DNA of 64,000 bases from Candidatus Falkowbacteria bacterium (GCA_043798985.1 JAZDOE010000001.1:309-64308); one strand, 5' to 3'; positions 15,870 to 41,306 are shown, counted from the stretch's first letter. Translations and numbers: made by a program. The notes: generated from the sequence alone by a model not told the origin.

Positions 15870-16673
15870 ATGGGAAGCCTGCTGAAAGAGCTGCCATCCT
15901 CTGAACTGGTGGCAACGATTGAAGAGTTTGGACGATTGGGGGTGACGCATGCGGATCTGAAGATTTTCAGATCTCTATGCGAGGAAGAGAAGAAAAGCAT
16001 CATAGCAACGTTTCGCTCTTTTGGCTCATTGCCAAATTTGCAAGGATTTGTGCTCGAGCCGTATAAGAGGACGACTGCTCAAGTGAAATTGCGCGAGATC
16101 ATGGGCAAGAACATGTTCGGAATAGAAGACGCGCTGATGCATTTTGATGCATGGGCAACCAGTGGGCAAATCGCGGCATTGGACGAGATACCATACTCTA
16201 AAAATGTGTTGAGAGAGTGCAAAGAAACGCATGTCTTGATAGCAGATTTTGGTTTGTCTATCAGAGACATGTGGAAAATGCACAGACGATTGTTTCGCTA
16301 TCGGGACAAGATGCCAGATGCGCCAAGCGAGTTTCTGGAAAAACGCGCGGCTCCTCAATGGCGTTTGATTGCCAAATACGCGAAGATAGACATCTGTAAC
16401 GCCGAGGATGGAGATACGCTTGCGACGCTTGGCAACGATGAAGAAATGCCAATAGCGCGAGAGTTGGTGTACGCGGCAATCGGGATGCGGCTCGCTCGCG
16501 GAGAGATTCTGTTTCATGATGTTAGAATCAGAACAGATGAAGGGCGGCGGTTTGAAGGTTGGTACATGCATATTGGTCCGCATGATGAAGAGTATGGGCT
16601 TGGTATTTTTTACGGCGGACTCATGCATGGTAGTGTTGGTAGTGGAATTGTGGGTCGCAGAAAGTTGTGTTGA
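15870..16673 (+). CDS. Hypothetical protein, high-GC island 'A', paralog of the 40488..41306 product
   Basis: About 55% GC with GC3-rich codons in a low-GC genome. It has its own TTGACA-18-GATAAT promoter (15775-15806) and SD (AACGGAGGcctgttATG). Several protein segments align with island 'B' (e.g. DEEMPIARELVYAAIGMRLARGEILF vs DERVPNAAEVAWGVIAYKAVRNVFLL). Confidence 0.6.
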   Translation: MGSLLKELPSSELVATIEEFGRLGVTHADLKIFRSLCEEEKKSIIATFRSFGSLPNLQGFVLEPYKRTTAQVKLREIMGKNMFGIEDALMHFDAWATSGQIAALDEIPYSKNVLRECKETHVLIADFGLSIRDMWKMHRRLFRYRDKMPDAPSEFLEKRAAPQWRLIAKYAKIDICNAEDGDTLATLGNDEEMPIARELVYAAIGMRLARGEILFHDVRIRTDEGRRFEGWYMHIGPHDEEYGLGIFYGGLMHGSVGSGIVGRRKLC

Positions 16674-16676
16674 ACG

Positions 16677-17114
16677 TTGAAATTCACTGGCAAACAATGG
16701 AGGAAGGCCATGAGAAGAGTGATGAAGTGGGAGATTCCTGCCTATGGAGCGTTGCTGTTGATAACGTTGGCGTTGATTGCGTGGACGTACTTGCCAAAGT
16801 CAACCGACGCAAAACCGTACCCGATCAATGATTCTGCTGTCAAAGCGGAAGAACACGTAAGATCGCCGTTCGCGTTTTCCGAGAGTCTTTACGAGGCGCT
16901 TAAAGAGAATGACGCGCTTCGCGAGGAGCTGGAAGTGTACAAGGCGCTGGAAGCCGAGTGGGCGGCGCAGGTTTTGACCCAGCTGCCGTGTCCAACATGT
17001 CCTGGCCATGTGGAAATCCTTTCTTCCGCAACGCCGCAGTGGTCAATGCCGCTCGAGTTGTTGGCGCTTTATTACTCCGGCGCAAACGGCGGAGGAGGAG
17101 TAAGCGTGAAATAG
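16677..17114 (+). CDS. Hypothetical N-terminally membrane-anchored protein, co-transcribed with island 'A'
   Basis: 145 aa. Starts 3 nt after the stop of gene A. One TM segment (AYGALLLITLALIAWTY), a CPTCP motif and a Gly-rich C-terminus. High GC. Confidence 0.5.
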   Translation: MKFTGKQWRKAMRRVMKWEIPAYGALLLITLALIAWTYLPKSTDAKPYPINDSAVKAEEHVRSPFAFSESLYEALKENDALREELEVYKALEAEWAAQVLTQLPCPTCPGHVEILSSATPQWSMPLELLALYYSGANGGGGVSVK

Positions 17115-17186
17115 GATAGGCTACACCGCTCAGCAAAGCTGGGCGGCGATTTTTTTGCAAAAAAAAACGAGCGTCGTTGTGGGTGT

Positions 17187-17297
17187 TGTCATTTCGACCC
17201 CACAACGCCCGCTTCGCCGAGGCGAGTGGGGGAGAAATCCCTTGTGAAATGCATTTGCGAAGGGATTCCTCACCCTTTGCAAGGGTTCGGAATGACA
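17187..17297 (-). mobile_element. MITE/RPE-like hairpin repeat, full-length copy R1 (111 bp), minus orientation, intergenic between island A/H and rny
   Basis: Terminal inverted repeats tgtcatttcgacccc ... ggttcggaatgaca. The internal core gggggagaaatcccttgt(g/a)aa is shared with copies at 42447, 44175 and 49030. The element is itself flanked by an 8-bp inverted repeat (gagcgtcg / cgacgctc). Confidence 0.8.
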
Positions 17298-17329
17298 GGC
17301 GGCCTCACCGACGCTCTGTTTTGTAATTT

Positions 17330-18850
17330 TTATCTGGCGTATTCTATGACTCTGTTTTCGCGAATAACTGTTACCTTAATTTCACCCGGATATTTTAGTT
17401 CAGCTTCTATTTTTTTCGCGATTTCCTCCGCAAGTTTTTGCGCTTGCAAATCTGAAATCTGTTCTGGCTGGACAAACACGCGGACTTCGCGGCCAGCCTG
17501 AATAGCATATGCTTTTTCAACGCCCGGAAGATCTGTCGCGATTCCTTCCAAATCAGACAGCCGTTGCAAATAGTTTTCGTAAGTGTCTTTTCTTGCCCCT
17601 GGACGCGCGCCGGAAATCGCGTCAGCTGTTTTTACAATTATGCCTTCAACCGTTGTTGGCGTATCAAGATGATGCTCAAGAATCGGCGCGATAATTTCAG
17701 CTGGTAAATTGAATTTTTTGGCAATGTCGCGGCCGATTTCAGGGTGAGTGCCTTGAACTTCGTGATCAACGGCTTTGCCCAGGTCATGCAAAAACCCGGC
17801 TTTTTTGGCAACCGCGACTTTTACTCCAAGCTGTTCCGCAAGCAACGCGGAAAGATGCGCGACTTCAATGCTGTGCTGTAAAACATTTTGGCCATAGCTT
17901 GTGCGGTATTTTAAGCGGCCCATGATTTGAACCAACTTTGGGTCTAGTCCCGCAATTCCAACGTCATAGCAAGCTTCTTCGCCCGCTTTTTTGATGTCTA
18001 TGGCAACTTCTTGTTTTGCTTCTTCCAGCGCGCTTTCAATTTTTGCGGGATGAATGCGTCCGTCCAAAATTAATTTTTCCAGCATTCGTTTTGCCACTTG
18101 TCTGCGAATCGGTGAAAAGCTGGAAATGGTGATTGCTTGTGGCGTGTCGTCAATAATGATTTCAGTGCCAGTCATTTGTTCAAGCACTTTGATGTTGCGG
18201 CCTTCGCGACCAATGATTCTGCCTTTCATTTCGTCTGATGGCAAATTGACAGTGCTGGTCGTTGTTTCAACCGCTTGATTAATTGCGCAACGTTGTATCG
18301 CGCTGATAAGAATTCTTTTTGCTTCTTCGTCCAAAACTGTCGCGCCTTCTTCTTTTAATTTTTTCACGCGGCTCATAATGGATTCTTCCATTTGAGTTTC
18401 AACGTTTTTTACTAAAACCTGCGCTGCTTCCTGTTTCGTGAGACCTGCGATTTTTTCCAATTTTTCCAACTGGCTTTTTTGGATTTCCTGAATTTTTAAT
18501 TTTGTCTCTTCCAATTGCTGCGCTTTTTCTTGAAGTTTGCCTTTTTCGCCTTCCAAATCCATCAGTTTTTGGTCAAACATTGATTCTCTGCGCTCAAGTC
18601 GTTTTTGTAAATTTGACAATTCTTGTCTGCGGCCTTGCTCGTCGCGTTTCGCGTCTTCAATGATTTTGAACGCCTTGTCTTTTGCTTCCATTACCATTTC
18701 TTTTTGCTTGGCTTTTGTTTCGTTCAGCGAATTCGCGATTTTGGTTTCAAGTGATTTTGCTTTGTTGGCGATAATCAATTTTCGCGTGTAATAACCAACA
18801 AAAAAACCAGCCACGAGGATGACAGCCGCTTCAATAATTAGCTGTGACAT
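17330..18850 (-). CDS. rny: Ribonuclease Y
   Basis: N-terminal TM anchor, coiled coil, KH domain and HD domain (H...HD...D). 506 aa. Confidence 0.92.
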   Translation of the reverse strand: MSQLIIEAAVILVAGFFVGYYTRKLIIANKAKSLETKIANSLNETKAKQKEMVMEAKDKAFKIIEDAKRDEQGRRQELSNLQKRLERRESMFDQKLMDLEGEKGKLQEKAQQLEETKLKIQEIQKSQLEKLEKIAGLTKQEAAQVLVKNVETQMEESIMSRVKKLKEEGATVLDEEAKRILISAIQRCAINQAVETTTSTVNLPSDEMKGRIIGREGRNIKVLEQMTGTEIIIDDTPQAITISSFSPIRRQVAKRMLEKLILDGRIHPAKIESALEEAKQEVAIDIKKAGEEACYDVGIAGLDPKLVQIMGRLKYRTSYGQNVLQHSIEVAHLSALLAEQLGVKVAVAKKAGFLHDLGKAVDHEVQGTHPEIGRDIAKKFNLPAEIIAPILEHHLDTPTTVEGIIVKTADAISGARPGARKDTYENYLQRLSDLEGIATDLPGVEKAYAIQAGREVRVFVQPEQISDLQAQKLAEEIAKKIEAELKYPGEIKVTVIRENRVIEYAR

Positions 18851-19162
18851 ATTCTTTGGCCAGCTGGAAAAACGTTTGAATTGTTTGCGTCTACAACAAA
18901 AAACTTATTTACTGATTTTAGCGGTATTTTGTGAAAGCACGTCTTGGTTGTTGTATATATTCAAATTCATGCGATTACTGAAATTTGTTGAATTTCGCAA
19001 ATCTAACGTTTTCTTGCTTGCCGTTTATTTTTAAACTATTCATATTATACAGCATCTGAAAATAAAAAGCAAATGCAGGGTTAATGTTGACATTTTGAAA
19101 TAAATGAAATAAACTAAGTAGCAGAATGTTGGATGGCCACTTTTACAACGAGGAGGTGTGCA

Positions 19163-19606
19163 ATGAATGAGGGATGCAGGCCGGCGCATGAAGTGATCGT
19201 GCATCATCTGGAAGCTCAAGTTGATTTTGTCCATCGCAGTCTGGTGACGGAAACGCTGGACATCGCGTTCAGCCGATACGCGCAGGTGCACGCTCTGTTG
19301 TTCGTCTTGGAGGAGATGGTCATTCCAGAGCAAGCGGTTAGCCGCGTGATTTCTGCGTTGCATGGTATTTCGGAGCGTTTCAAAGAGATGCTGCCAATGG
19401 CCGGAGCGTTTCACGCGCGGATGGACAAGGCAGTTGAGATTCTGGTGGCGCGCAAGAAGCGCAGCGAGCAGCCGGGCGGATCGTCGAATGCTGACAAGCC
19501 ATTGTCTGCAGCAGAGAAGAAGATGGTGGGGGGTGTAGTTGATGAGGCGCTGCGCCTTGCCGATGAGTGCGAGGTCGTTGCTGAGAAGTTGAGAAAGAAA
19601 AGATGA
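19163..19606 (+). CDS. Hypothetical protein, high-GC island 'C'
   Basis: About 58% GC. TTGACA-18-TAAACT promoter (19087-19116), SD GAGGAGGTGTGCA-ATG, followed by a terminator. The ORF track calls 19133, but the ATG 30 nt downstream has the proper RBS spacing. Confidence 0.55.
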   Translation: MNEGCRPAHEVIVHHLEAQVDFVHRSLVTETLDIAFSRYAQVHALLFVLEEMVIPEQAVSRVISALHGISERFKEMLPMAGAFHARMDKAVEILVARKKRSEQPGGSSNADKPLSAAEKKMVGGVVDEALRLADECEVVAEKLRKKR

Positions 19607-19617
19607 TGAGTGATCTT

Positions 19618-19650
19618 TCGGGGCGCTCGCAAAGCGATCGCCCCCTTTTT
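19618..19650 (+). terminator. Rho-independent terminator after island C (cggggcgctcgc-aaa-gcgatcgccccc-TTTTTTT)
   Basis: 11-bp stem with one mismatch, followed by T7. Confidence 0.75.
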
Positions 19651-19674
19651 TTACGCCAGCATTTTTGCTAAGAT

Positions 19675-20853
19675 ATGGTTGTACGGGTTGTTAAATATGT
19701 CTTTATGAATATAGCGCAGGTTGTGTGCGTTCTGCCACCTATAGCCGGAGGAATTGGTCGCGTGGCAGATCGCTATGCTGATGAATTAACAAAACTCGGG
19801 CATGAAGTTCAGGTTTTTCTTCCTCAACAAAAAGGGGTGGATTTTTGTTTGGGCAAAAATTACAGAGTTGAACTGTTAAAACCGCTTGTTGGAAACGGGT
19901 TAGCAGCTGTTTTACCGCAGCTTTTTGGCAAATTGAAAAATTTTGATGCGATTATTTTGCATTATCCGTTTTTTGGGTCAGCTTTGTTGACGGCGCTGGT
20001 TGTCTCCTTCGACAGGCTCAGGATGACAACGCCGCGACGATTTATTGTTGTTTATCACATGGATGTTGTGTTAAAAGGTTGGAAAAAAATTTATGAAAAA
20101 GTTGGGCGATGGTTGTTTTTAAATTTTATTTTAAATTCCGCGGATAAAATTGTTTGTTCGTCATTTGATTACATTGAAAATTCAAATATAAAAAAATATT
20201 TTAGAAAACGCCGCGCCAAATTTTTTGAAATTCCTTTTGGCGCATCCGATCAATTTAAACCAGCGCCAAAAGATACAGAATTGTTGGCGCGGCACGGTTT
20301 TATTGAATCCGATAAAATCGTTTTATTTGTCGGTGGTTTAAATTCCGAACATTATTTTAAAGGCGTGAATTATTTTATTGACGCGATCAAGTTGATTGAT
20401 GATAAAAACATAAAAGCATTGATTGTTGGTTCTGGAAATTTGAAAAGCGAATATGAGAAGTTGGTTGACGAGAAGAATTTGGCGAATCGCGTAAAGTTTG
20501 CCGGATTTGTAAGTGATGAAGATTTGCCAAAATATTATAATTTGGCAGACGCAATAATTTTGCCGTCAATAAATTGTTCGGAAGCGTTTGGCATTGTGCT
20601 GGTTGAAGCAATGGCGTGCGGAAAACCGGTGCTGGCGTCAGATTTGGCAGGCGTGCGAAGTGTTGTTGAAAATAATAGAAACGGTTTTACGTTTGAACCA
20701 AAAACATCGGCTGATATCGCGTTAAAAATTGAAATGCTTTTTGGCGATGTTGCGCGCTATAAAATATTCAGCGAAGAATGTTTAAGGTTAGTTGAACAAA
20801 AATATCGCTGGAATATCGCCGCGAAAAAATTGAATGAAATAATTTTGTCATGA
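19675..20853 (+). CDS. Glycosyltransferase family 1 (GT4)
   Basis: C-terminal EAFGIVLVEAMACGKPV...E motif typical of GT4 retaining glycosyltransferases. Confidence 0.85.
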   Translation: MVVRVVKYVFMNIAQVVCVLPPIAGGIGRVADRYADELTKLGHEVQVFLPQQKGVDFCLGKNYRVELLKPLVGNGLAAVLPQLFGKLKNFDAIILHYPFFGSALLTALVVSFDRLRMTTPRRFIVVYHMDVVLKGWKKIYEKVGRWLFLNFILNSADKIVCSSFDYIENSNIKKYFRKRRAKFFEIPFGASDQFKPAPKDTELLARHGFIESDKIVLFVGGLNSEHYFKGVNYFIDAIKLIDDKNIKALIVGSGNLKSEYEKLVDEKNLANRVKFAGFVSDEDLPKYYNLADAIILPSINCSEAFGIVLVEAMACGKPVLASDLAGVRSVVENNRNGFTFEPKTSADIALKIEMLFGDVARYKIFSEECLRLVEQKYRWNIAAKKLNEIILS

Positions 20854-22049
20854 AAATTTGCATAATAACAAATTTATACCAGCCGCATAGTCGCGGCGGC
20901 GCGGAATTGATTGCCAAAACAATGGCAAACGGTTTTGTCAGCGCTGGTGATTCAGTTGTTGTTATTTCAACAAAACCAACGCGCGGTTTATCCGTGGATC
21001 AGGCGAGCGGGCGCATGCGAATTTATCGTTTCCTGCCGCTGAATATTTTTTATTATTTAAATGATTATAAACACAGCGCGCCAATCCGGTTGCTGTGGCA
21101 TTTTTTTGACATGTTCAATTGGCACAGCGCCAAAGTTGTCGCCGGAATTTTGAAAAATGAAAAACCTGATTTAGTCGTCACACACAATTTAAAAGGCATT
21201 GGTTTGTTAATACCGCGCGTAATCGCGCGGCTGAAATTAAAGCATGTTCATGTTTTGCACGATGTTCAGCTTGTTGTTCCATCTGGTCTGATTTTGAAAA
21301 ATCACGAGCAAGATTTTTCCATTGTCGGCTGGCCGACAAGAGTTTACGCTGGGATTTGTCGCTGGTTGTTTGGCAAAGTTAGTTTTGTCGTTTCGCCATC
21401 AAAATGGTTGCTTGATTTTTATGTTAGAAATGGATTTTTCAAAAACAGCCAGCAACAAACTATTCGCAATCCTGTGGTTGGCGTAGAGACGAGACATGTC
21501 TCGTCTCTGCAAAAGACCAATCAATTTTTGTTTGTTGGGCAAATTGAAAAGCACAAAGGCATTGATTGGTTAGTAAATTTTTGGAGGAAAAAGAATATTG
21601 CTGACGAATTGTTGATCGTTGGCCATGGATCGTTGAAGCATGGCTACGAAACTGCAAATCAGGACGAATGTTACAAATCTGCGAATATTAAGTTTTTTGG
21701 AAAAAAGACGAGGGAAGAGTTGGAAGAAATGTACCGGCCAGCTGACTTTTTAATCGCACCGTCATTATGTTATGAAAACTCTCCGACGGTGATTCAATCA
21801 GCGTTCCAAAACGGGGTGCCGGTGATTGTCGCTGATATTGGCGGCGCGGCAGAATTGGTTGAAAATAAAAAAACAGGATTTATTTTTCCTGCTGGCAACG
21901 AAGACGCGTTGATTAAAATCTTGGAAAATATCAAGTTGCTCGCGGACAAGGATTATCAAAAAATGTCAGAGCAATGTTTGGAAAAGTCGCGAGATTGGGA
22001 TGTTGAAAGATATATCGTAGCTTGTAGGAAGATAGCTGGTAGCTTGTAG
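20850..22049 (+). CDS. Glycosyltransferase family 1 (GT4), carrying an in-frame palindromic insertion (VETRHVSSLQ)
   Basis: N-terminal RGGAE glycine loop and C-terminal E.SPTVIQSAFQNGVPVIVADIGG motif. It overlaps the previous GT gene by 4 nt. Confidence 0.85.
   Translation: MKICIITNLYQPHSRGGAELIAKTMANGFVSAGDSVVVISTKPTRGLSVDQASGRMRIYRFLPLNIFYYLNDYKHSAPIRLLWHFFDMFNWHSAKVVAGILKNEKPDLVVTHNLKGIGLLIPRVIARLKLKHVHVLHDVQLVVPSGLILKNHEQDFSIVGWPTRVYAGICRWLFGKVSFVVSPSKWLLDFYVRNGFFKNSQQQTIRNPVVGVETRHVSSLQKTNQFLFVGQIEKHKGIDWLVNFWRKKNIADELLIVGHGSLKHGYETANQDECYKSANIKFFGKKTREELEEMYRPADFLIAPSLCYENSPTVIQSAFQNGVPVIVADIGGAAELVENKKTGFIFPAGNEDALIKILENIKLLADKDYQKMSEQCLEKSRDWDVERYIVACRKIAGSL
21485..21508. repeat. Perfect 24-bp palindrome agagacgagacatgtctcgtctct inside the GT CDS, in-frame. 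Member of the GTAGAGACG family.
   Basis: Its reverse complement is identical. It encodes ETRHVSS on both strands. Same sequence family as the copies at 7987, 40347 and 44742. Confidence 0.8.
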
Positions 22050-22085
22050 AATAAAAAATCGGCCCAGTAGTCTGGACCGGTTTTT

Positions 22086-23174
22086 TTATAAACCTTTTAA
22101 ACTTAATCCCATTCTGTATTCGTTTGGTTCCAAAGAAACAATTTTGAATTTCATTTTATCGCCAGCTTTTGCAATGTCGCTTGGGGTTGCTTCTTTGTCT
22201 GACAATTCAGAAACATGCGCCAATCCTTGTAATTCTCCATCCAGTTGGACAAACAAGCCATACGGATTTACTTTTGCGATTGTTCCTTCAACAATGTCTC
22301 CGATTTTATATTTTTGTTCAATCCCGATCCAAGGATTTGCGCTAAGCTGTTTTACTGACAAAAACATTTTGGAATTATCAATTTTGATAATTTTTACCTG
22401 AAGTTCCTGTTCGACTTTGAACAATTCATTTGGGTCGTCAATTCTTTGCCACGCCAGTTCAGAAATGTGGATTAGCCCTTCCAGCCTTTCTCCAAACTCC
22501 ACGAACACTCCGAAATTTGTTATGGCAGTCACTTTGCCGGGTATGATGTCGCCTTCCTTATACTTGCTAAAAATTTCTTTTTTCGTTTCTTCCCACGCCG
22601 CTTTTTCAGAAACGATTAATTTTTCTTCATCTTCGTCAGCGGTAATAATTTTGACGGCCAATTCTTCGCCAGCCAGTTTTTTCAGGCGTTCAAGAATTTT
22701 GTTCTTGTCACCGCCAGGGACGCGCGGATAATGCTCTGGACTTAATTGAGAAACCGGCAAAAATCCGTTCAATTTTCCATAGGTGACCAATAAGCCGCCT
22801 TTGTTCGCGTCTTTTACGCGGACATTCACAATGCTGTTTGCCTGCATTAATTCGTGCAGACCGTTCCAGACTTTTTGATGGCCGGCATAACTGAATGAAA
22901 GTTCCGCGAATCCAAGCTCGTTTTCTCCTTCCAAAACAGTGGCTTCAACAGAATCGTTGACTTTTAGGTTTTTGTATTCGTCAGAATGAGTGTTCAGCTC
23001 TTGGCCGCGCACAATTCCGACCGCGATTCCGTCAATGTCAACCAAAATTTGGTTGCGTTTGATTGCGATTACCGTGCCTTTAACGATTTCGCCTGCTTCT
23101 GGCAGCTTTGGCGTACCGTCTTTTTTGTCCAAAAGCTCGGTCATTTTTGAATTTTCTACGATTGCATTAGACAT
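22086..23174 (-). CDS. rpsA: 30S ribosomal protein S1 (four S1 domains)
   Basis: 362 aa with repeated S1 motifs (G.V..I..FG.FV.L..GL.HISE). Confidence 0.9.
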   Translation of the reverse strand: MSNAIVENSKMTELLDKKDGTPKLPEAGEIVKGTVIAIKRNQILVDIDGIAVGIVRGQELNTHSDEYKNLKVNDSVEATVLEGENELGFAELSFSYAGHQKVWNGLHELMQANSIVNVRVKDANKGGLLVTYGKLNGFLPVSQLSPEHYPRVPGGDKNKILERLKKLAGEELAVKIITADEDEEKLIVSEKAAWEETKKEIFSKYKEGDIIPGKVTAITNFGVFVEFGERLEGLIHISELAWQRIDDPNELFKVEQELQVKIIKIDNSKMFLSVKQLSANPWIGIEQKYKIGDIVEGTIAKVNPYGLFVQLDGELQGLAHVSELSDKEATPSDIAKAGDKMKFKIVSLEPNEYRMGLSLKGL

Positions 23175-23440
23175 CGCTTAATGCTCCTTTCTTTGTAAGA
23201 TGCACTAAGCGTAGCGCAGGCGATTTAAATTGTCAACGCTTGATTTTTTGTTCACATTTTGGGCTTTCATTTTTTATTAAATTCTGATAGAATGTAATAA
23301 GAAAGTAGAAACTGGAAACTGGGAATTAGGGTATATGAATATGCGTAATTGCAATTTTTTAAACCATAAGTTGTAACCTCAATTTCTAATTTCTCAATTT
23401 TGTTAATTTCAATTATAAATTAATTAAATAGTATAAAGTT

Positions 23441-23953
23441 ATGGATTTTTCTTTAATAATAATAATTTGTCTTTTTGTATATCTGTGTATTTTTTTAAGA
23501 CTAATTTTGGTTAAGTTTAATAATACTCTTAATAAAAAAAGTGAATTGGAAAACGATAAAGATTCCTTTTATCCTGTGTTTAGCCGAGCAGAAATTAAAC
23601 AGCAGCTTTTTGATATTGAAATTAAGAAATTTAAAAAATCAAAAAAAGGTGATGAATATGACAAGCTACTTTCCGAGGAGAAAGAAAAAAATATTTTTCC
23701 GAGCGATAACATTAAGTATTTAATACGAGATTATTCTGAAGATGTTATTGAATACGAATTTTCCGAAAATAGATTAAACAAAATGTTGCAGGCAAATATA
23801 GACGTGCTAAATGGGAGTAAAAAAATTAATGAAGTTGACAAAGATAAAGTTTTGTGTGACATAATAGAAATGTTTGATAAAATTAAGCAAGGCAAGCTTA
23901 GATATGAAGAATGGTTAGAGCGAATACAAAGTAAAAAAGAGCCAAAGAAATAG
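23441..23953 (+). CDS. Hypothetical membrane-anchored Lys/Glu-rich protein in an AT-rich island
   Basis: 170 aa with an N-terminal TM (LIIIICLFVYLCIFL). The region is about 25% GC, far below the surroundings. Confidence 0.4.
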   Translation: MDFSLIIIICLFVYLCIFLRLILVKFNNTLNKKSELENDKDSFYPVFSRAEIKQQLFDIEIKKFKKSKKGDEYDKLLSEEKEKNIFPSDNIKYLIRDYSEDVIEYEFSENRLNKMLQANIDVLNGSKKINEVDKDKVLCDIIEMFDKIKQGKLRYEEWLERIQSKKEPKK

Positions 23954-24015
23954 CGCAACGTGGATAGTATTAATGGTAATTTAAGTAAAATTTCTGAGGG
24001 AAGTTTATAAAAATT

Positions 24016-24231
24016 ATGGCTAGAATAAATTTTGATTCAGTCTTTGAGCGAAGGGCTGACGGCACGTTAATTCCTCGTCAAAGGATACGCGTAGGGGGAA
24101 TTGAGTTGGGGCTAGGTGTTGTTTTTCGTCGGGGGGTCGCCTTTGGAGGCATAGATTTTACGCAATTTATAGGTCGCGAGCTTGATGTAGAGACAGACGG
24201 TGATATTTTGGTTATCAAAGGGATTTATTAA
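24016..24231 (+). CDS. Hypothetical small protein (71 aa)
   Basis: ORF with a Gly/Arg-rich beta-like sequence. It is GC-richer than the neighbouring AT-rich genes. No family recognised. Confidence 0.35.
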   Translation: MARINFDSVFERRADGTLIPRQRIRVGGIELGLGVVFRRGVAFGGIDFTQFIGRELDVETDGDILVIKGIY

Positions 24232-24235
24232 GTTT

Positions 24236-24529
24236 ATGGGTAAGAACGAAAAACCACAAATTATCATACCTGATCCAATCCATGAAGCGATAAATAGAAT
24301 TAATAAAGCAATATGGGCTATCGTTAGTATTTTGATCCTTGGTTTTATAACGATGCTTTTAATGGTAGCGGGTCTCGTTTTAGATGCATGGCGATTTAAA
24401 AGTAATTCCTATGAGGGTTTGATAGAGACGATACGGACGCAAGAAGAGATTATTAATAATAATAAAATTCAACAAGCCGAGGTGAAAAGTATTTTAGAAA
24501 ATATACAAAAGAAGTTACCGAAAAAATAA
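24236..24529 (+). CDS. Hypothetical small membrane protein
   Basis: One TM helix (AIVSILILGFITMLLMVAGLVL) and a Lys-rich C-terminus. Start is probably MGKNEKPQ, since the ORF-track start at 24200 overlaps the previous gene. Confidence 0.4.
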   Translation: MGKNEKPQIIIPDPIHEAINRINKAIWAIVSILILGFITMLLMVAGLVLDAWRFKSNSYEGLIETIRTQEEIINNNKIQQAEVKSILENIQKKLPKK

Positions 24530-24589
24530 AATGATTTTGGACAAATAAGTCTGATTTCAAAATTAAAAATTTAAAATCCAAAATTTTGT

Positions 24590-25249: not shown

Positions 25250-25275
25250 GGCGAGATTGCCGCGCTACGCTCGCA

Positions 25276-25527
25276 ATGACAAATGATAAACGAAAATTAT
25301 ATTTGATCATTTCAGTTGCTATTACCGCATTGTTGATTTTTATTTTTTGGCTTGGTAGTGTCGCGAGTGATTTTCAACAAATAGATGCTGGACAAAAAAT
25401 AGGGGAAAACGGCGTTAAGCAGGAAATAGAAAGTTTTTTCAGCGGCGTGAAAAGTTTTATTATAAAAGATAAGCAAGATTTGTTAAATAAATATGAAAAA
25501 GATTCCGCAAAAAGCACTGGAATTTAA
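25276..25527 (+). CDS. Hypothetical small membrane protein
   Basis: 83 aa with one TM helix ([19 protein letters not shown]). It overlaps the gyrA start. Confidence 0.35.
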
Positions 25528-30693: not shown

Positions 30694-30726
30694 CGGCGTT
30701 CAAAATGAACGCCGCGGTTTATTTTA
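30694..30726 (+). terminator. Rho-independent terminator after island D (gcggcgttc-aaaa-gaacgccgc-ggTTTATTTT)
   Basis: Perfect 9-bp stem followed by a T-rich tail. Confidence 0.75.
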
Positions 30727-34100: not shown

Positions 34101-34484
34101 TTGAACCACATGGTTGAAGACAAGATTCACCAGCGTTCAATTGGACCATATTCTTTGATTACTCAACAGCCATTGGGCGGTAAGGCGCAGTTTGGTGGAC
34201 AAAGATTTGGAGAAATGGAAGTCTGGGCGCTTGAGGCTTATGGCGCGGCCCATATGTTGCAGGAAATTTTGACTATTAAGTCTGATGATGTGATTGGCCG
34301 CGCCAAAGCGTATGAGTCAATTATCAAGGGAGATCCAATCCGCAGGCTGAATGTGCCAGAGTCATTTAATGTTTTGGTGCGCGAACTAAAAGGATTAGTT
34401 CTCGAAGTGCTTTTGTTGAAAAATGGCAAGGTCGTTGACATGGACGCAATCGCACAGGCCAGAAATAATGAACAAAAAAGATAA
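31116..34484 (+). CDS. rpoB: DNA-directed RNA polymerase subunit beta
   Basis: 1122 aa with conserved rifampicin-cluster and catalytic regions. Followed directly by rpoC. Confidence 0.97.
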   Translation: MFFMPKKAATVKTSRKYFTKSYFLDLPDLIEIQKKSYNNFLRTGLEELLQEISPIVDVSEKGLELHMQDYYLDEPKFDEVTSKEKNITYEAPIRVKAVLINSKTKKREAQEVYLGDFPIMTDRGTFIINGIERVAVSQIIRSAGVFFTSDYIREKNRFFYGAKVIPNRGAWLEFETDANNVIWVKIDRKRKVAATSLLRAFGVSTDEDINKLFSGVDSHPDIKYIDATLAKDAAHDQDEGLMEIYKRIRPGDLATPENAKSLIFAMFFNFERYDFGQVGRYKMNQRFGNEYPLIEEHRILKVDDLVAIIKEIIRLSITQSDADDIDHLGNRRVRAIGELIQNRFRIGLARMTRIIRDRMSTMDPISLTPSKLINARPVIGVVREFFMSSQLSQFMDQTNPLSELEHKRRLSAMGPGGLSRERASFEVRDVHATHYSRICPIQTPEGPNIGLVGHLASYAHVNDFGFIEAPFFAVTHKVTKDIKDPKTNQILFKKGAVVLGIELDTCSVDDEIIASSVETTITKDVKYLTAIQEEKSITASCVVAFDENGKFLVDKTSMRYYGKPSIDYVFKIDYLDVASNQIVSIATSLIPFLEHDDGARALMGSNMQRQAIPCVHPQAPLVGTGIEAKAAYDSGHLIIAEDDGEIVKADAQEIHLLSKKGVLYKHKLRKYSCSNASTSINQRTSIENGAKVKRGEVLADGPATDRGELALGQNLLTAYICWEGYNYEDAIILSERLVHDDRFSSVHIETYSVDVRDTKLGAEQITADIPNISEERLKNLDADGIVRIGATVASGDILVGKITPKGETELSPEEKLLKAIFGEKARDVRDTSLRLEHGEHGKVVDVRIFSQENGDRLSPGVTKTIQVTIANLRKVQVGDKLAGRHGNKGVISKIVPVEDIPFLEDGTPVDIILTPLGIVSRMNLGQVLETHTGLAIKKLGFTVATPAFNGITEEKVKELLKEAGYPETGQMYLYNGKTGERFDRPATIGYHYAMKLNHMVEDKIHQRSIGPYSLITQQPLGGKAQFGGQRFGEMEVWALEAYGAAHMLQEILTIKSDDVIGRAKAYESIIKGDPIRRLNVPESFNVLVRELKGLVLEVLLLKNGKVVDMDAIAQARNNEQKR

Positions 34485-34498
34485 ATTAATATATTCAT

Positions 34499-37400
34499 AT
34501 GGCAGAATTAAAAATAAATGACTTTGACTCAATTGCGGTTAAGCTTGCGTCGCCAGATCAAATTCTTGGCTGGTCGCACGGCGAAATCTTGCGGCCGGAA
34601 ACTATTAATTACCGCACGCAAAGGCCGGAAAAAGACGGATTGTTTTGTGAGAAAATTTTTGGACCGACAAAAGACTGGGAGTGCTATTGCGGTAAGTACA
34701 AAAAAATTCGTTACAAAGGAATCGTTTGCGACAAGTGCGGAGTTGAGGTGACACGCGCCATTGTAAGACGTGAACGAATGGGGCACATTACTTTGGCCAC
34801 GCCTGTTTCGCACATTTGGTTTTTGCGCGGTGTTCCGTCAAAAGTCGGTTTGATTTTGGATATTTCCGTGCAAAAGCTTGAAAAAGTTATTTACTTTGCC
34901 AATTTTATAATCATGGACGTTGATCAGCAAGCAAAGGATGAGGAAATTGAAAATTTGAAAAAAGAATTTATCACTCAGCAAAAAACATTGGACAATCAGC
35001 TCAAACAAAAAGTGAGCGCTGTGACGAATAACAATTCAATCCCTAACGCTGATAAGACGGCGGCCATTGTAAAATTGAATCAGGAAATAGAGCAGGAAAA
35101 AACTGATCTTGAAAAACGTTATCAGGAAGAAGATAAAACATTGAAACGTCTTCGTCCGTTGGAGCTTTTGGCAGAGACGACGTTTCAGGATTTATCTTTG
35201 AAATATGGCCATGTGTTTGAGGCTGGTATTGGCGCCGCGGCTGTCCGAAAGCTTTTGGAAAAAGTTGATGTTGAGCAAGAAGTTAAAATAATGGAAAAGC
35301 ATATTAAGAATGACAATGTTGGCGGTGAAAAGAAAATAGTGAACCGTTTGAAATTGTTGCGCAATTTGAAACGAAATAAAATTCGGCCGGAATGGATGAT
35401 TTTGTCCGTTGTTCCGGTTATTCCGCCGGATTTACGGCCAATGGTTCCATTGGATGGCGGCCGCTACGCGACGTCAGATTTGAATGATTTATATCGCAGA
35501 GTTTTGTCGCGCAATAATCGTTTGAAAAAATTATTGGAATTAAACGCGCCAGAGGTGATTTGTCGCAATGAACGCAGAATGTTGCAGGAGGCTGTTGACG
35601 CGTTGATTGACAATTCGGCGCGACATACAAAAGCCGTCGCCGCAACCATGCAAAAGCGGCCGCTAAAATCTTTGGCAGATTATTTGAAAGGCAAGCAAGG
35701 TCGATTTCGTCAGAATTTGCTTGGCAAACGCACGGATTATTCTGGCCGCAGTGTAATCGTTGTTGGTCCGCATTTGAAATTGCATCAATGCGGTTTGCCA
35801 AAAACAATGGCAATTGAACTTTTTAAACCATTTATTATCAGCCGATTAATTCGCGATGGGTTTGTCCATAATATTCGCAGCGCCAATCGTTTTATTGAAC
35901 TGGATCGGCCAGAAGTTTGGGATATTTTGGAAGATGTTGTTAAGGATTCGCACGTGTTATTGAACCGCGCGCCAACATTGCACAGACTTGGCATTCAGGC
36001 GTTTCAGCCGATTTTGGTGGAAGGCAAAGCCATTCAATTGCATCCATTGGTTTGCACTGCGTTTAACGCTGACTTTGACGGCGACCAAATGGCAGTGCAT
36101 TTGCCATTGACCGAAGAAGCTAAGTTGGAAGCAAAGGAATTGATGAGATCAACAAAAAATCTTTTGAAACCAGCGACCGGCCAGTCAATCGTCACGCCAT
36201 CAAAAGACATGATTTGGGGCATTTATTACGTGACGTCTGTAAAAGATGAAAACGCAGAGCCTAAAAAATATTTTGCATCTATTCAGGAGGCGAAAATCGC
36301 GTATGATTTACGTAAGATAACGTTGCGCGACATTATTGCCGTGAGAGTTATTGACGAAGAGTTGAAGAAAAAATGCAAAGATGAAAAATATTTAAAAACA
36401 ACGTTAGGCAGAATTATCTTCAATAAGATTTTGCCGGAAAAGTTGGCGTTTTATAACGCTGTTATTGAGAAAAAGCGGTTCGCTGAAATAATTCAGGGCT
36501 TGTTTGAACATTATGATTTTGAAACCGTTGCGGTTGTGCTGGATGATATTAAAGATTTTGGTTTTAAGCAGCTTACAAAGTCTGGATTTTCATGGGGCAT
36601 GTCAGATTTGCCGGTTATTAAAGAAAAGCAGCCATTGATTGAGGAAGGAAATCGGTTGGTGGATGAAATTGAAAATCAATATGAAGATGGTTTGCTTACT
36701 GCTGACGAGCGGTACACAAAAATTATTGAAACATGGACAGTCATAAAAGATAAAATCGCGGCAGTTAGTAAGCAATATCTGGATACGCAGGGACCGGTTT
36801 ATTCAATGATTGATTCTGGCGCGCGCGGTTCATGGGCACAGCTGATCCAGATGCTTGGAATGAAGGGTTTGGTGATTAATCCTGCCGGACAAATTATTGA
36901 ATTGCCGGTTAAGGCGAATTTTAAAGAAGGGTTTAATGTGCTGGAATATTACATTTCAACGCATGGAACGCGTAAAGGTTTGACTGATACTGCTTTGCGC
37001 ACGGCAAACTCTGGATATCTTACCCGTCGCTTGGTTGATGTAGCGCAAGAGGTGATGGTTTTGAAGGATGATTGCGGAGACATTGATGGATTTTTGGTGA
37101 CTCGTAAAGACGCTGAATCGTGCGGACAAAAGTTTTTTGAACGCATTGTTGGCCGGTATACGGTTCGCGACATTATTTTACCAAAAACACGCAAGCCGCT
37201 CGTGAAAGCAGGCGAGATGATTGTAGCGGATTTTGCGAAAAAGATTGACAAGGAACTTGGAGTTGAAGATGTTTTGATTCGCTCGGCGCTTTCCTGCAAA
37301 TTGAAAAAAGGAATCTGCCAAAAATGTTATGGCATTGACCTCGCTTACAACAAGCTGGTTGAGATTGGAACGGCGGTTGGTGTAATCGCGGCGCAAAGTA

Positions 37401-38434
37401 TTGGTGAGCCTGGCACGCAGCTTACAATGAGAACTTTTCATACCGGTGGCGTGGCTGGTGTTGATATTACGCAGGGTTTGCCGCGCGTTGAGGAAATTTT
37501 TGAAGTCAGACCGCCAAAGAAAAAAGCATTGATGAGCGAGGTTGAGGGTAATGTTGATATTCAGGAAGTCCCGCGCGTGATTCAAGGCACAAAAGGTGAA
37601 ATAGTGGCGCGCACTTCTTTTGGTGAAAAGATTTTGAAGATTAGATTTATTGATAAAGAAAAAGAAGCATTCCAAATGCCGGAAAGCGCGAAATTAAAAG
37701 TCAAAGTCGGAGAGAGCGTTTTGCCGGGCACAGTGATTTTCGTCACAGCTGATAAACACAAAATAAAGAACAAACAAACTGGCATTGTGCAGATTGATGG
37801 TAATAAAATAGAAATTTCCGGCGAACGCGATGCGGAAAAAGAATATCTAATTCCAGCTGGCACTGTGCTTTGGGTAAAAAATGGTGATTATGTTTATGCT
37901 GGCGATCAGCTTACAGAAGGCAGCCTTGATTTGCAGCAGCTTTATAAATTAAAGAGCAAGGAAGCTGTGCAAAAGTATATTTTGAAAGAAATTCAATCTA
38001 TTTATACTTCACAAGGTCAGAAGCTGAACGAAAAGCACATTGAGATTATTATCAAGCAGTTGTTCTCTCGCGTGTATGTTAAAAATGCAGGTGACACCGA
38101 GTTGCTGGAAGGCGAAATCGTTTGCAAATCTGAATTTTTGGACGCGAATGACCGTGTCGGAAAAGGTGCTTTGGCAGAAGGCGAGGATGTTTTACTTGGA
38201 ATTACCAGAGTCGCGTTGACCACCGGTAGCTTTTTGGCAGCGGCCTCATTTCAAGAGACTGCTCGCGTACTTATCAACGCCGCGCTTAGCGCTAAAGCAG
38301 ACGGGTTGGAAGGGCTGAAAGAAAACGTTATTATCGGCCGTTTGATTCCAGCTGGTACTGGTTTTCACAAGCATGGCATTTCTGACCGCGAGGTTGAGGA
38401 ACCGGTTGAAGAAAAAGCGGCGCCAGAAGTTTAA
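34499..38434 (+). CDS. rpoC: DNA-directed RNA polymerase subunit beta'
   Basis: N-terminal zinc finger CYCGKYKKIRYKGIVCDKCG and the catalytic NADFDGDQM motif. 1311 aa. Confidence 0.97.
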   Translation: MAELKINDFDSIAVKLASPDQILGWSHGEILRPETINYRTQRPEKDGLFCEKIFGPTKDWECYCGKYKKIRYKGIVCDKCGVEVTRAIVRRERMGHITLATPVSHIWFLRGVPSKVGLILDISVQKLEKVIYFANFIIMDVDQQAKDEEIENLKKEFITQQKTLDNQLKQKVSAVTNNNSIPNADKTAAIVKLNQEIEQEKTDLEKRYQEEDKTLKRLRPLELLAETTFQDLSLKYGHVFEAGIGAAAVRKLLEKVDVEQEVKIMEKHIKNDNVGGEKKIVNRLKLLRNLKRNKIRPEWMILSVVPVIPPDLRPMVPLDGGRYATSDLNDLYRRVLSRNNRLKKLLELNAPEVICRNERRMLQEAVDALIDNSARHTKAVAATMQKRPLKSLADYLKGKQGRFRQNLLGKRTDYSGRSVIVVGPHLKLHQCGLPKTMAIELFKPFIISRLIRDGFVHNIRSANRFIELDRPEVWDILEDVVKDSHVLLNRAPTLHRLGIQAFQPILVEGKAIQLHPLVCTAFNADFDGDQMAVHLPLTEEAKLEAKELMRSTKNLLKPATGQSIVTPSKDMIWGIYYVTSVKDENAEPKKYFASIQEAKIAYDLRKITLRDIIAVRVIDEELKKKCKDEKYLKTTLGRIIFNKILPEKLAFYNAVIEKKRFAEIIQGLFEHYDFETVAVVLDDIKDFGFKQLTKSGFSWGMSDLPVIKEKQPLIEEGNRLVDEIENQYEDGLLTADERYTKIIETWTVIKDKIAAVSKQYLDTQGPVYSMIDSGARGSWAQLIQMLGMKGLVINPAGQIIELPVKANFKEGFNVLEYYISTHGTRKGLTDTALRTANSGYLTRRLVDVAQEVMVLKDDCGDIDGFLVTRKDAESCGQKFFERIVGRYTVRDIILPKTRKPLVKAGEMIVADFAKKIDKELGVEDVLIRSALSCKLKKGICQKCYGIDLAYNKLVEIGTAVGVIAAQSIGEPGTQLTMRTFHTGGVAGVDITQGLPRVEEIFEVRPPKKKALMSEVEGNVDIQEVPRVIQGTKGEIVARTSFGEKILKIRFIDKEKEAFQMPESAKLKVKVGESVLPGTVIFVTADKHKIKNKQTGIVQIDGNKIEISGERDAEKEYLIPAGTVLWVKNGDYVYAGDQLTEGSLDLQQLYKLKSKEAVQKYILKEIQSIYTSQGQKLNEKHIEIIIKQLFSRVYVKNAGDTELLEGEIVCKSEFLDANDRVGKGALAEGEDVLLGITRVALTTGSFLAAASFQETARVLINAALSAKADGLEGLKENVIIGRLIPAGTGFHKHGISDREVEEPVEEKAAPEV

Positions 38435-38442
38435 TTTAAGTT

Positions 38443-40284
38443 ATGCGCAAAAATTTGTTTAAAAATATTTTGATATTCGCGGCAGCGCTTTTAGTAATCA
38501 GCAGTTTGTTCAGCTTATACGAGGTGCAAAGCGAAAAGCCTAAGGCAATCGGCGTTCCGGCGCTTGTGCAACAAATTAATAATGCGGAAGTTTCTAAGAT
38601 AGAGATAACTGACAGGTCGCTGGATGTTGTTTTAAAAAATGATGAGAAAGAAACAATCGCGAAAGAAGCTGGCGACACATTTTCTGACTTGATAAAAAAT
38701 TACCAGGTTGATCCTGCCAAATTGGCAGGCGTGGAAGTGGTTGTCAAACAAGAATCAGGCGCCGCGTTTTGGGTGAATGTTTTGGCGCCGATCCTTTTGC
38801 CATTGCTGTTGATTATTGGTTTTATATGGTTTATGACTCGGCAGGTGCAAGGCGCGAATATGCAGGCAATGAATTTTGGCAGAAGCCGCGCGCGCGAAAT
38901 GAAAAAGGGGCAGGTTGGCAATGAAATTGTCACGTTTAAAGATGTTGCTGGCGTTAAAGAAGCAAAAGAAGAATTGCAGGAAATAGTGGAGTTTTTAAAA
39001 CATCCTAAAAAGTTTTTAAAATTGGGCGCGAAAATTCCGCGAGGAGTTTTACTGCTCGGCGCGCCGGGAACAGGTAAAACATTGTTGGCGCGCGCTGTGG
39101 CCGGCGAAGCCGGCGTCCAGTTTTTCAGCATTTCCGGTTCAGAGTTTGTTGAAATGTTTGTTGGCGTTGGAGCGTCTCGCGTGCGAGATTTATTCGCGCG
39201 CGCGAAAAAAAGCGCGCCGTGCATATTGTTTATTGATGAAATAGACGCCGTAGGCCGTCAGCGCGGCGCCGGATTGGGCGGCTCGCACGATGAACGCGAG
39301 CAAACGTTAAATCAGATTTTGGTTGAAATGGACGGGTTTGATCCAACCACAAATTTGATCGTGCTCGCCGCGACAAACAGACCAGATGTTTTGGATCCGG
39401 CTTTATTGCGGCCCGGCCGCTTTGACCGCCGCGTGTTTTTGGATTTGCCGGACATAAATGACCGCGAGGCCATACTGAAAGTTCACGCGCGCAAAAAGCC
39501 GCTGACAGCTGACGCGAATTTGCGCCATGTGGCCGAGCGGACGCCCGGATTTTCCGGCGCTGATTTGGCAAATGTTTTGAATGAAGCCGCGATTTTGACC
39601 GCGCGACGTGACAAAAATAAAATCGGCGAAATTGAAATTTTGGAAAGTATTGAAAAAGTTTTGCTTGGGCCAGAGCGGCAAAGTTGTTTATTGAGCCAAG
39701 ATGAGAAAAAGGTGACTGCGTATCACGAGGCAGGGCACGCGCTTGTCGCGCACATGATGCCGCACGCTGATCCTGTTCACAAAATTTCAATTGTGTCGCG
39801 CGGCAGAGTAGCTGGCTTTACTTTGAATTTGCCGGAAATAGAGCGCAGGCTGCATCGCAAGTCAGAGTTTTTGGATGATTTGGCTGTTTTGCTGGCAGGC
39901 TATGTGACGGAAAAAGAAATTTTTCACGAGGTGACAACTGGTGCTGGAGATGATTTGCGAAAAGCCACGGAATTGAGTCGTGATTTAATCACGCAGTATG
40001 GGATGAGCGATACGCTGTCTCCGCGAATTTACGGTGGCAGAGAAGAAATGATATTTTTGGGACGCGATATTCGCGAGCAGAGAAATTACAGCGAGCGCGT
40101 GGCTGAACAAATTGATTCTGAAATTGATAAATTGATGACTGAAGCAGCTGCGCGAGCGAAAGTGGTTATCAACGAAAATAAAGATCGGCTGGAAAATATC
40201 GTTAAGGTTTTGTTGGAAAAGGAAACAATTGAAAAAGATGAGTTTGTCCAAGTGGTTGGAATTCCAAAGCCAAGCAGGACGTAA
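38443..40284 (+). CDS. ftsH: ATP-dependent zinc metalloprotease FtsH
   Basis: Two TM helices, AAA+ Walker A GPPGTGKT (here GAPGTGKT), the SRH, and the zinc motif HEAGHA. Confidence 0.95.
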
Positions 40285-40346
40285 ATGCCCCGCATTTTAT
40301 CTGTAAAGTACGAAATGATTGCGGGGTCCCGCCATCGAGGCGGGAT

Positions 40347-40371
40347 AGAGACGAGGCATTGCCTCGTCTCT
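40347..40371. repeat. Perfect 25-bp palindrome agagacgaggcattgcctcgtctct. GTAGAGACG family, downstream of ftsH and upstream of island B.
   Basis: Reverse complement is identical apart from the central base. An adjacent hairpin cccgcc-atcgag-gcggg lies immediately upstream. Confidence 0.8.
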
Positions 40372-40487
40372 TGGGTTTGCGCGACGGTTGACAAAAAGTA
40401 AGGTCTGATGTAAGATGATTTTGCTGTGGTAAAACCATTTGGTTCAGACCCGCCAGCGTTTAGTTCTTTCAAAGAGGAGCAACTACC

Positions 40488-41306
40488 ATGAGTAGAACAA
40501 CCTCGCAGGACTCGGGTTTCCCGGGATGGTATGTCACGTTTCAGACCGCTGCGTTGAATCAACTGCCGCGTCCGCCAGAGCTGGATCAGGTGACAGCAGA
40601 AGGGTGGATCAAGAACCAAGGCGCGCTGAAAAAGGTGCTTGCCGAAGATTTGCTGCCGCCAACGCTGAAGAAGACGATGGCGGAGCGGGTGGGGGGCGAG
40701 CTGGCAAGTGAAATTCTGGGCAAGGATTTCATCAACGCGGCAGAGATTGAGGCGGCGTTTAGGATGAAGTACGAGGCAGAACAGCTGGCAATGCTGGAAG
40801 ATTCGATGCCGTCGGAAGAAGTCCTGCGGTGGATGGCGGCAAACGAGTACATGCTCGTGGCGAAGCCACCGACAGAAATGTCGTTGCTGGATGTTCGGGC
40901 GGAGAAGCGTGAGCTGTTTTACAGCAAGACCGATGACGGATGGTATTGCAAGCAGGAGCAGACGTTTGCGCGCGATGACAAGACCAGCGCAGGGTGGCTT
41001 GCACTGCGCAAGACAATAGTGCCGAATTCGCAGAGCAAGACATGGGAAGAGCAGCAGAAGCTGCTGACCAAGGACGAGAGAGTGCCGAACGCGGCAGAGG
41101 TAGCGTGGGGAGTGATTGCGTACAAGGCGGTGAGAAACGTGTTTCTCTTGCCCACGATGTACGCGCGGACAAGTTCCGTGTCTGCCCTTGGTTTTCATGT
41201 GGATGTCGGTGGTTTTGTTGTTGCCGGCTTAGATGTCTGCGTCTGGTTTGACTGTTACGTTGGTCGCCTCGGCTTGGCGGGCGCGCGCCTGCCTACCGTC
41301 AGGTAG
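40488..41306 (+). CDS. Hypothetical protein, high-GC island 'B', paralog of the 15870..16673 product
   Basis: About 58% GC. Own TTGACA-17-TAAGAT promoter (40389-40417). Alignable with island A over several segments. Gly-rich hydrophobic C-terminus. Confidence 0.6.
   Translation: MSRTTSQDSGFPGWYVTFQTAALNQLPRPPELDQVTAEGWIKNQGALKKVLAEDLLPPTLKKTMAERVGGELASEILGKDFINAAEIEAAFRMKYEAEQLAMLEDSMPSEEVLRWMAANEYMLVAKPPTEMSLLDVRAEKRELFYSKTDDGWYCKQEQTFARDDKTSAGWLALRKTIVPNSQSKTWEEQQKLLTKDERVPNAAEVAWGVIAYKAVRNVFLLPTMYARTSSVSALGFHVDVGGFVVAGLDVCVWFDCYVGRLGLAGARLPTVR

Follow-up and report, generated by a model that had tools for sequence, protein, structure and literature searches.

Two diverged genes of a Candidatus Falkowbacteria genome are probable members of a variable-protein family of Patescibacteria diversity-generating retroelements

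We analyzed a stretch of 64,000 nucleotides from a Candidatus Falkowbacteria bacterium (GCA_043798985.1, JAZDOE010000001.1:309-64308; hereafter, the window), which carries two distant open reading frames, ORF A and ORF B, for which a paralogous relationship had been proposed from the sequence. Our results indicate that A and B are paralogues within a family of variable proteins of the diversity-generating retroelements (DGRs) of Patescibacteria. According to this reading, to which we assign a probability of about 0.85, ORF B bears a variable region (VR) without the DGR machinery in its vicinity, whereas ORF A is a decayed or frozen copy.

The coordinates and lengths given for both genes in the original prediction were correct (Table 1), and the two reading frames are identical to V1902_00100 and V1902_00195, located on a 72.8-kb contig of a Candidatus Falkowbacteria metagenome-assembled genome (MAG). 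The pairwise comparison of the two proteins by BLASTP was borderline, with 21% identity over 154 aa and an E value of 0.012, marginally over the value of 0.01 above which the original prediction considered paralogy refuted. The comparison of the family profiles (ORF A with the 5 homologues found in the databases, and ORF B with 56) was clear: hhalign reported a probability of 100% and an E value of 2e-47 over 199 columns. The three blocks that had been aligned by eye pair the same residues that were paired by BLASTP and hhalign. Because the profiles match at this level, we take the homology as real in spite of the borderline BLASTP result, and the claim that A and B are diverged paralogues was thus sustained by the family-profile match. 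In a transitive tblastn search, the domain of B also matched two loci of the A-type subfamily, L024 (5e-24) and L026 (3e-25). The homology spans the C-terminal domain of about 200 aa, whereas the approximately 70 N-terminal residues are not conserved. The Gly-rich hydrophobic tails ascribed to both proteins are real, and they are the VR equivalents described below. The genome has further copies, as had been suspected: V1902_00745 and V1902_00455 are present on another contig of the same MAG, which brings the family to at least four copies on at least two contigs. These comparisons indicate that A and B, two paralogues of ancient divergence, belong to a single large family of Patescibacteria.

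The statement that neither protein belongs to a recognized family held in Pfam, NCBIfam, PHROGs and PADLOC, none of which yielded a match for A or B. The Pfam search of both proteins at E ≤ 1 gave no match, including to the FGE-sulfatase (PF03781) and DUF1566 (PF07603) families; extending it to all 57 B-type members at E ≤ 10 revealed no consistent family, and no solved structure searched by sequence matched the family. The idea that the family is specific to this organism was refuted by its breadth. In an hmmsearch with a hidden Markov model of the B set, at least 2,906 clusters (50% identity) had a representative with E ≤ 1e-3, and 659 had one with E ≤ 1e-30. Additionally, when each GTDB species was represented by a single genome, the source MAG not being among these representatives, the scan retrieved 22 loci, all from different Patescibacteria MAGs (labeled Moranbacteria, Paceibacteria, Kaiserbacteria, Parcubacteria and 'Saccharibacteria'). 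ORF B shows 40-53% identity with the retrieved relatives, and 46-53% over about 200 aa with eight of them that are linked to a DGR template. A hydrophobic N-terminus resembling a signal peptide and ending in AQD or AQA was observed in the members P0013, P0027, P0037 and P0063, and not in A, B or most others; the family may comprise secreted and cytoplasmic forms.

The surroundings of the relatives connect the family with DGRs. In eight of the 22 loci (L001, L003, L006, L007, L008, L010, L013 and L014), the gene ends in a VR of 117-122 nt that is paired with a template repeat (TR) located 370-490 nt downstream, with an identity of 84-90%. Nearly all the mismatches between VR and TR, 118 out of 130, correspond to adenines of the TR (per locus, 17/17, 18/19, 14/18, 13/14, 15/17, 16/17, 13/14 and 12/12). 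Read in frame, the TR encodes S-V-D-S-D-G-N-R-V-N-V-G-N-F-D-A-K-G-L-N-V-N-N-N-W-D-D-N-R-N-D-N-L-G-L-A-S-A-R; the TRs are rich in AAC and AAT codons, and the matching codons of the VRs are NNC or NNT. Directly past the TR there is a gene of 116 aa on the opposite strand, followed by a reverse transcriptase (RT) of approximately 350 aa. The product of the former matches bAvd (PF22296) with 60.7 bits (cutoff of 40) and the NCBIfam entry 'diversity-generating retroelement protein Avd' (DivGenRetAVD) with 75.4 bits, just under its cutoff of 80, and the latter matches RVT_1 (3.4e-25) and carries the motif RYTDDF. Avd and RT are both present at nine related loci. Since a target gene with a C-terminal VR, a TR, avd and an RT gene are all present, the relatives display the complete anatomy of a DGR, and we conclude from these sequence comparisons that the A/B family represents the variable, or target, protein of the DGRs of Patescibacteria.

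Not all copies are found in this arrangement. Among the 20 related loci whose flanking sequence was sufficient, 11 lack an RT within approximately 3-6 kb, and several of them still keep a conserved element downstream of the VR that is described below. Locus L004 (6858-8264) includes avd and RT, but has no TR anywhere in its 9.5 kb, and therefore such cassettes decay. The RT matches of L007 (4542-5622) and L014 (7487-8532) were split into two tblastn pieces, which may represent a frameshift or an insertion. In L016, two family genes are arranged in tandem (2282-2815 and 2971-3564) and are 75% identical in DNA along 271 nt of their 3' ends; no RT was detected within this 9.6-kb locus.

Alternatively, A and B could be ordinary paralogues, specific to the organism or carried by a mobile element and having no link to a retroelement, and the variability of their tails could reflect conventional diversifying selection. 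The window, which is devoid of RT and TR, would fit this explanation, and so would the appearance of both genes as GC-rich 'islands' with a small palindromic repeat nearby. We regard it as very improbable, given that the relatives reside in complete target-TR-avd-RT cassettes with adenine-specific mismatches, that the family is spread across Patescibacteria, that the flanks of the A and B islands have no common terminal repeats, and that a high GC content is a trait of the target gene itself. Regarding this last point, the GC content is 0.48 for ORF A, 0.57 for ORF B and 0.42 for the window. The target gene has a GC content of 0.55-0.64 in 21 of the 22 loci (L001-L022), about 3-21 points (mostly ≥8) over the host flanks, and avd and RT of those cassettes reach only 0.37-0.48. 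In 21 of 22 hosts, the 'island' appearance belongs to the target gene. Recent horizontal transfer was also considered as the source of the GC islands, and it was discarded because in these 21 hosts a GC-rich target is accompanied by AT-rich avd and RT genes within one cassette.

The last 39 codons of ORF B before its final residues have an adenine content of 6%, compared with 26% in the body of the gene, and 82% of these codons are of the NNY type (Y, C or T), compared with 27%. In this respect, ORF B equals or surpasses the cassette-linked VRs (8.5-17% adenine and 77-85% NNY). The two sister paralogues of the same MAG, V1902_00745 (P0008) and V1902_00455 (P0010), both from a contig of 94.8 kb, share 80% and 71% identity, respectively, with the body of the B domain; the body identity among the three paralogues is 71-80%. 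When the VRs of B and its two sisters were compared, 21 columns were identical in all three and 18 varied. All the residues at the varying columns (53/53) belong to the set of 15 residues that can arise by mutagenesis of AAY codons; at the variable columns of the body, this proportion is 67%. Moreover, of the 18 columns that vary, 14 correspond to codons with adenine in the TRs of related cassettes (Fisher p = 3.6e-4). The VR of ORF B carries the full signature of DGR writing, and the VRs of B, V1902_00455 and V1902_00745 look like three outputs of one template.

The equivalent region of ORF A shows a different composition, with 21% adenine and 64% NNY codons; it includes GAA, GAG, ATG, AAG and TGG codons and an insertion of five residues. 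The codon signature of the AAY set is absent from this region of ORF A, where Glu, Lys, Met and Trp residues are present. Among the A-type relatives, L024 and L026 have kept a VR-like composition, and L026 also keeps the element that follows the VR, which is why we consider that the A-type lineage descends from DGR targets too. In locus L017, a B-type copy is found at 5 kb from an A-type copy, the tail of which is as eroded as that of ORF A. The codon composition and the alignment thus point to ORF A as a decayed or frozen DGR target. Another A-type gene, L025 1380-1924 (minus strand), has a YafQ-type toxin-antitoxin pair directly downstream.

The comparison of the sequences located 3' of the VRs revealed a conserved element of about 60 nt, which comprises CGGAAG(TTC)TGA, direct repeats of CTTGA, the hairpin GAGGR-CTTGT-YCCTC and a GC-rich terminator (for example, L005 6586-6675, L013 6607-6696 and L009 6595-6684). 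The stem of this hairpin shows compensatory G:C/A:T changes among the relatives, and the element is retained in copies with no RT within 6 kb. This element represents a candidate target-recognition module of the DGRs of the Patescibacteria clade. In ORF B, the VR ends in a G/C-only run resembling the initiation of mutagenic homing (IMH) site, which is followed by a hairpin over the stop codon with a stem of 6 bp and a loop of 4 nt (Table 1). The 10-mer CTGCCTACCG opens a hairpin of 6 bp and 4 nt that is inserted right after the VR in B (41289-41307) and also in the A-type locus L026 (1165-1180). Similar sequences are present at two unrelated sites, around position 56334 (minus strand) of the window and around position 11534 of L001. 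The C-terminus of V1902_00455, LPAGKAGKF, fits an insert of the CTGCCTACCG hairpin that would be one base longer and have compensatory changes in the stem, CCTGCC/GGCAGG compared with the CCTACC/GGTAGG of B, as deduced from the protein only.

From these elements, a mechanism can be proposed. The protein consists of a variable helical N-terminus and a domain of about 200 aa, the last 39 codons or so of which constitute the VR, and in complete cassettes the target gene is followed by the TR, then by avd in opposite orientation, and then by the RT gene. According to the mechanism established for DGRs, RT-Avd would reverse-transcribe the TR transcript, misincorporating at adenines; the resulting cDNA would then overwrite the VR, and approximately 16-18 AAY-templated codons would be randomized. 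ORF B would have a DGR-written VR, with a scaffold common to its two sisters, followed by the IMH-like G/C run and the hairpin. In ORF A, with the VR decayed and the downstream recognition element lost, diversification would no longer occur, and the protein would act, if at all, as a binding protein of fixed specificity.

Both the fold and the ligand-binding role of the protein are presumptive. The AlphaFold2 model of full-length B had a pLDDT of 87.5, with values near 97 for the domain, and the model of the domain alone had a pLDDT of 96 and a pTM of 0.93. Foldseek gave weak matches of the domain model, mostly to SenA, EgtB, FGE, pFGE, Mtd, TvpA, TaqVP and snake C-type lectins, which suggests that the domain of about 200 aa probably adopts a C-type-lectin/FGE-like fold.

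Several observations weigh against our interpretation of A and B as members of the DGR variable-protein family. No RT was detected in the window, either as an ORF of at least 150 aa with a YxDD motif or by tblastn with the L001 RT (1e-4); no Avd was detected in it by tblastn with the L001 Avd (1e-4), and no TR by blastn of both 3' ends or by tblastn with TR peptides. Therefore, there is no direct proof by a TR/VR pair for B or A. The hairpin of B, with its 6-bp stem and GTCA loop, departs from the phage consensus (7-10 bp and a GRNA loop), and its local fold has a z-score of −0.9. The VR of B is one codon shorter than those of both sisters, and B has no first half of the conserved post-VR element of the family; both losses argue against a recent rewriting of B. 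As for the fold, no match had an E value below 0.1, so that the C-type-lectin assignment rests on a consistent list of individually insignificant matches, given also that no solved structure matched by sequence.

These observations also bear on the present state of ORF B, which we conclude is a remote or a recently orphaned DGR target. One option is that B is an active remote target, and that a single DGR situated elsewhere in the genome diversifies B and its two sisters in trans; we would place this trans-acting DGR probably beside V1902_00745 or V1902_00455, on the 94.8-kb contig. The VR scaffold, identical in the three paralogues despite a divergence of 20-29% in their bodies, fits this option, as do the restriction of the 53 variable residues to the AAY set, the extremely low adenine content of the VR, and the IMH-like G/C run and hairpin that follow it. 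Orphan copies in other genomes retain the conserved post-VR element, and other DGRs have documented non-adjacent targets (PMC5758913). Against it stand the deletion of one codon in the VR, the partial loss of the family-typical post-VR element, and the failure to locate an RT or a TR: apart from the searches in the window, the 120 best-matching RT homologues, out of a total of at least 5,789, included none from the source MAG. A scan of metagenomes with a 20-mer from the constant part of the B VR gave 20 chance matches in high-GC contigs, none of them encoding a relative. We consider that the chances of this option fall slightly short of even.

The other option is that B is a fossil like A: the DGR that wrote it has been lost or no longer recognizes it, and its VR is frozen and subject to ordinary mutation only. 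The missing codon and the truncated post-VR element agree with this possibility, as do the 11 related loci without a nearby RT, the decayed cassette of L004, and the clear erosion of ORF A and of the A-type copy of L017. Nevertheless, a VR with 6% adenine and 82% NNY codons would erode with time in a genome of 42% GC, and the three paralogues have kept an identical scaffold. Given that this composition would erode, the writing of the B VR must have been recent on an evolutionary scale. Taking both sides together, we judge it an even bet that B is frozen.

A more specific version of action in trans can be put forward, although we hold it to be rather unlikely. In a streamlined Patescibacteria genome, at least three VR paralogues dispersed over different contigs would be rewritten in trans by one DGR by means of a lineage-specific module, formed by the G/C run and an inserted 6-bp hairpin, and the A-type, an older lineage of paralogues no longer subject to diversification, would be frozen as a protein of fixed specificity. 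The recognition module would be common to B, the inferred end of V1902_00455 and an A-type relative, and the A-type would also be found beside the B-type in L017. If true, it would broaden remote DGR action on several targets to include the clade of the CPR (candidate phyla radiation), and would show a birth-and-freeze life cycle of DGR targets.

The features identified in the window are listed in Table 1.

Table 1. Features of ORF A and ORF B and of their flanking sequences in the 64,000-nt window
Feature	Position	Strand	Basis or description
Promoter-like site upstream of ORF A	15773..15799	+	TTGACA, 15-nt spacer, GATAAT; direct reading
ORF A, 267 aa	15870..16673	+	NCBI V1902_00100; A-type subfamily of the putative DGR variable-protein family
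Conserved C-terminal domain of ORF A, ~200 aa	16080..16670	+	hhalign columns; tblastn to A-type loci; putatively C-type-lectin/FGE-like via homology with B
Eroded VR equivalent of ORF A, last 39 codons before RK	16548..16664	+	Codon composition and alignment
Remnant of the post-VR element after ORF A (CGCAGAAAGTTGTGTTGAACGTTGAAATTC, cf. CGGAAGTTCTGAACCTTGAAnCC)	16656..16685	+	3' flank comparison
Small ORF, 145 aa	16677..17114	+	One predicted transmembrane helix; appears co-transcribed with A, unit membership uncertain
Terminator-like site after ORF A and the small ORF	17126..17155		Scan
Promoter-like site of ORF B	40388..40416	+	TTGACA-17-TAAGAT, 10/12; consensus scan
ORF B, 272 aa	40488..41306	+	NCBI V1902_00195; B-type member of the putative DGR variable-protein family
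Conserved C-terminal domain of ORF B	40692..41303	+	AlphaFold2 model and weak fold matches (FGE/C-type-lectin-fold proteins)
VR of ORF B, 39 codons (SSVSALG...LGLAGAR)	41172..41288	+	6% A, 82% NNY
G/C-only run of 14 nt (GGCGGGCGCGCGCC), IMH-like, at the 3' end of the B VR	41276..41289	+	Sequence
Hairpin CCTACC-GTCA-GGTAGG over the ORF B stop codon, 2 nt past the G/C run	41292..41307	+	Centroid fold
Remnant of the ancestral gene end and second half of the post-VR element (GAAGTTCTAG TTTCTACTTGACTTTTTGAG)	41308..41337	+	3' flank comparison
Terminator-like stem-loop and T-run closing the B unit	41354..41385	+	Scan

ORF B stands alone between ftsH (38443-40284) and a gene for a membrane protein (41423-42436), and has a good Shine-Dalgarno sequence. 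The strong promoter that had been attributed to each gene was confirmed for B, with 10 of 12 consensus positions; for A, the promoter-like site was not called by the consensus scan because its spacer is 15 nt. ORF A and the small ORF lie between ymdB (14920-15720) and rny (17330-18850), both on the minus strand. These two genes are adjacent in many bacteria; here, they are split by an insert of 1.6 kb in the opposite strand that carries ORF A and the small ORF. The latter has a TTG start, a single hydrophobic helix, a coiled-coil-like middle part and a GC content of 0.53; it had no family match in curated libraries and no homologue in any of the retrieved loci.

A self-complementary GC-rich repeat of approximately 58 nt, similar to repetitive extragenic palindromes (REP) or miniature inverted-repeat transposable elements (MITE), was found at 17218-17275 and at 42471-42527 (minus strand), with 93% identity between the two copies; partial copies are present at 49026-49048 and 44176-44193. 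The copy at 42471-42527 is 1.2 kb past ORF B, behind another gene. The proposed association of A and B with a palindrome, a MITE or a mobile element was not borne out, given that the palindrome recurs at unrelated sites and that the flanks of the A and B islands share nothing else. Neither terminal repeats common to both islands nor a transposase-like ORF between the flanking housekeeping genes were detected, and hence A and B were discarded as cargo genes of a MITE or an insertion sequence, the palindrome being an unrelated interspersed repeat.

With these results, two genes annotated as hypothetical proteins are placed in a family that comprises at least 2,906 clusters, lacks an entry in Pfam and could be annotated as Patescibacteria DGR variable protein; thousands of genes would be detected with a profile of the A/B family. 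In reference genomes, approximately half of the copies of this family are away from any RT, and targets distant from an RT are explicitly missed by cassette-based surveys (PMC8144416). In CPR bacteria, the number of proteins with the shape of DGR targets therefore probably exceeds what the DGR counts would imply. The pair formed by B and A, together with that of L017, provides a natural series, albeit small, of VRs in the intact, orphaned and eroded states, which may be useful for understanding the recruitment and fixation of hypervariable binding proteins in episymbiotic bacteria. That CPR bacteria have DGRs and unclassifiable targets was already known, and no new mechanism is revealed here. 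What is new is the assignment of both genes, together with a family of no fewer than 2,900 clusters, to the DGR system, the frequency of dispersed and eroded copies, and the conserved post-VR element.

Regarding the characterized variable proteins, Mtd of the Bordetella phage BPP-1 (1yu0-1yu4), TvpA of Treponema denticola (2y3c) and TaqVP of Thermus aquaticus (5vf4) likewise have a C-terminal VR templated by AAY codons, and they appear among the top Foldseek matches of the B domain model, without reaching significance (E values of 1.8-5.4, TM-scores ≤0.3). They differ from the A/B family in that there is no detectable sequence similarity, the N-terminal parts are others, and there is no trimer or phage-tail context. 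The DGR of T. denticola has seven non-adjacent targets (cited in PMC5758913), and its organization, in which several dispersed paralogous VRs depend on one TR, would serve as the model of B, V1902_00455 and V1902_00745; the TR of Treponema is known and matches every VR, whereas a TR for B and its sisters was not seen. In BPP-1, target recognition requires the IMH, a (GC)14 plus 21 bp, and then a hairpin/cruciform (Guo et al. 2011, PMC3240598), the phage hairpin having a consensus of a 7-10 bp stem and a GRNA loop (PMC3240598). Like BPP-1, B has a 14-nt G/C-only run at the end of the VR and then, past 2 nt, a hairpin whose loop has 4 nt; unlike BPP-1, its stem has 6 bp and its loop is GTCA, and most relatives use the CTTGA repeats and the GAGGR-CTTGT-YCCTC hairpin.

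The closest known systems are the DGRs of Patescibacteria/CPR. One DGR clade is restricted to Patescibacteria, and its targets have no recognizable domains and are suspected to be new C-type-lectin variants (PMC8144416, PMC5758913). An earlier survey left the CPR VRs as 'unknown VR' classes ('CPR set', UVR1-6; Wu et al. 2018, PMC5758913), and the CPR clade tends to have a single target (2017 survey, PMC5758913). The systems reported there (PMC5758913; clade 2 of Roux et al. 2021, PMC8144416) come from the same phylum and have the same target-TR-avd-RT cassette as our relatives, and their targets likewise lack a recognizable Pfam domain or transmembrane segment and bear the VR at the extreme C-terminus. 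Unlike those cassettes, the copies in the window have no adjacent TR, avd or RT, and the genome holds at least four copies on at least two contigs. One of our cassette loci, L008, comes from a groundwater Moranbacteria MAG of the GW2011 series, which we take to be part of the CPR set of the CPR DGR surveys. We place the family found in the window in the known, unannotated set of CPR DGR targets.

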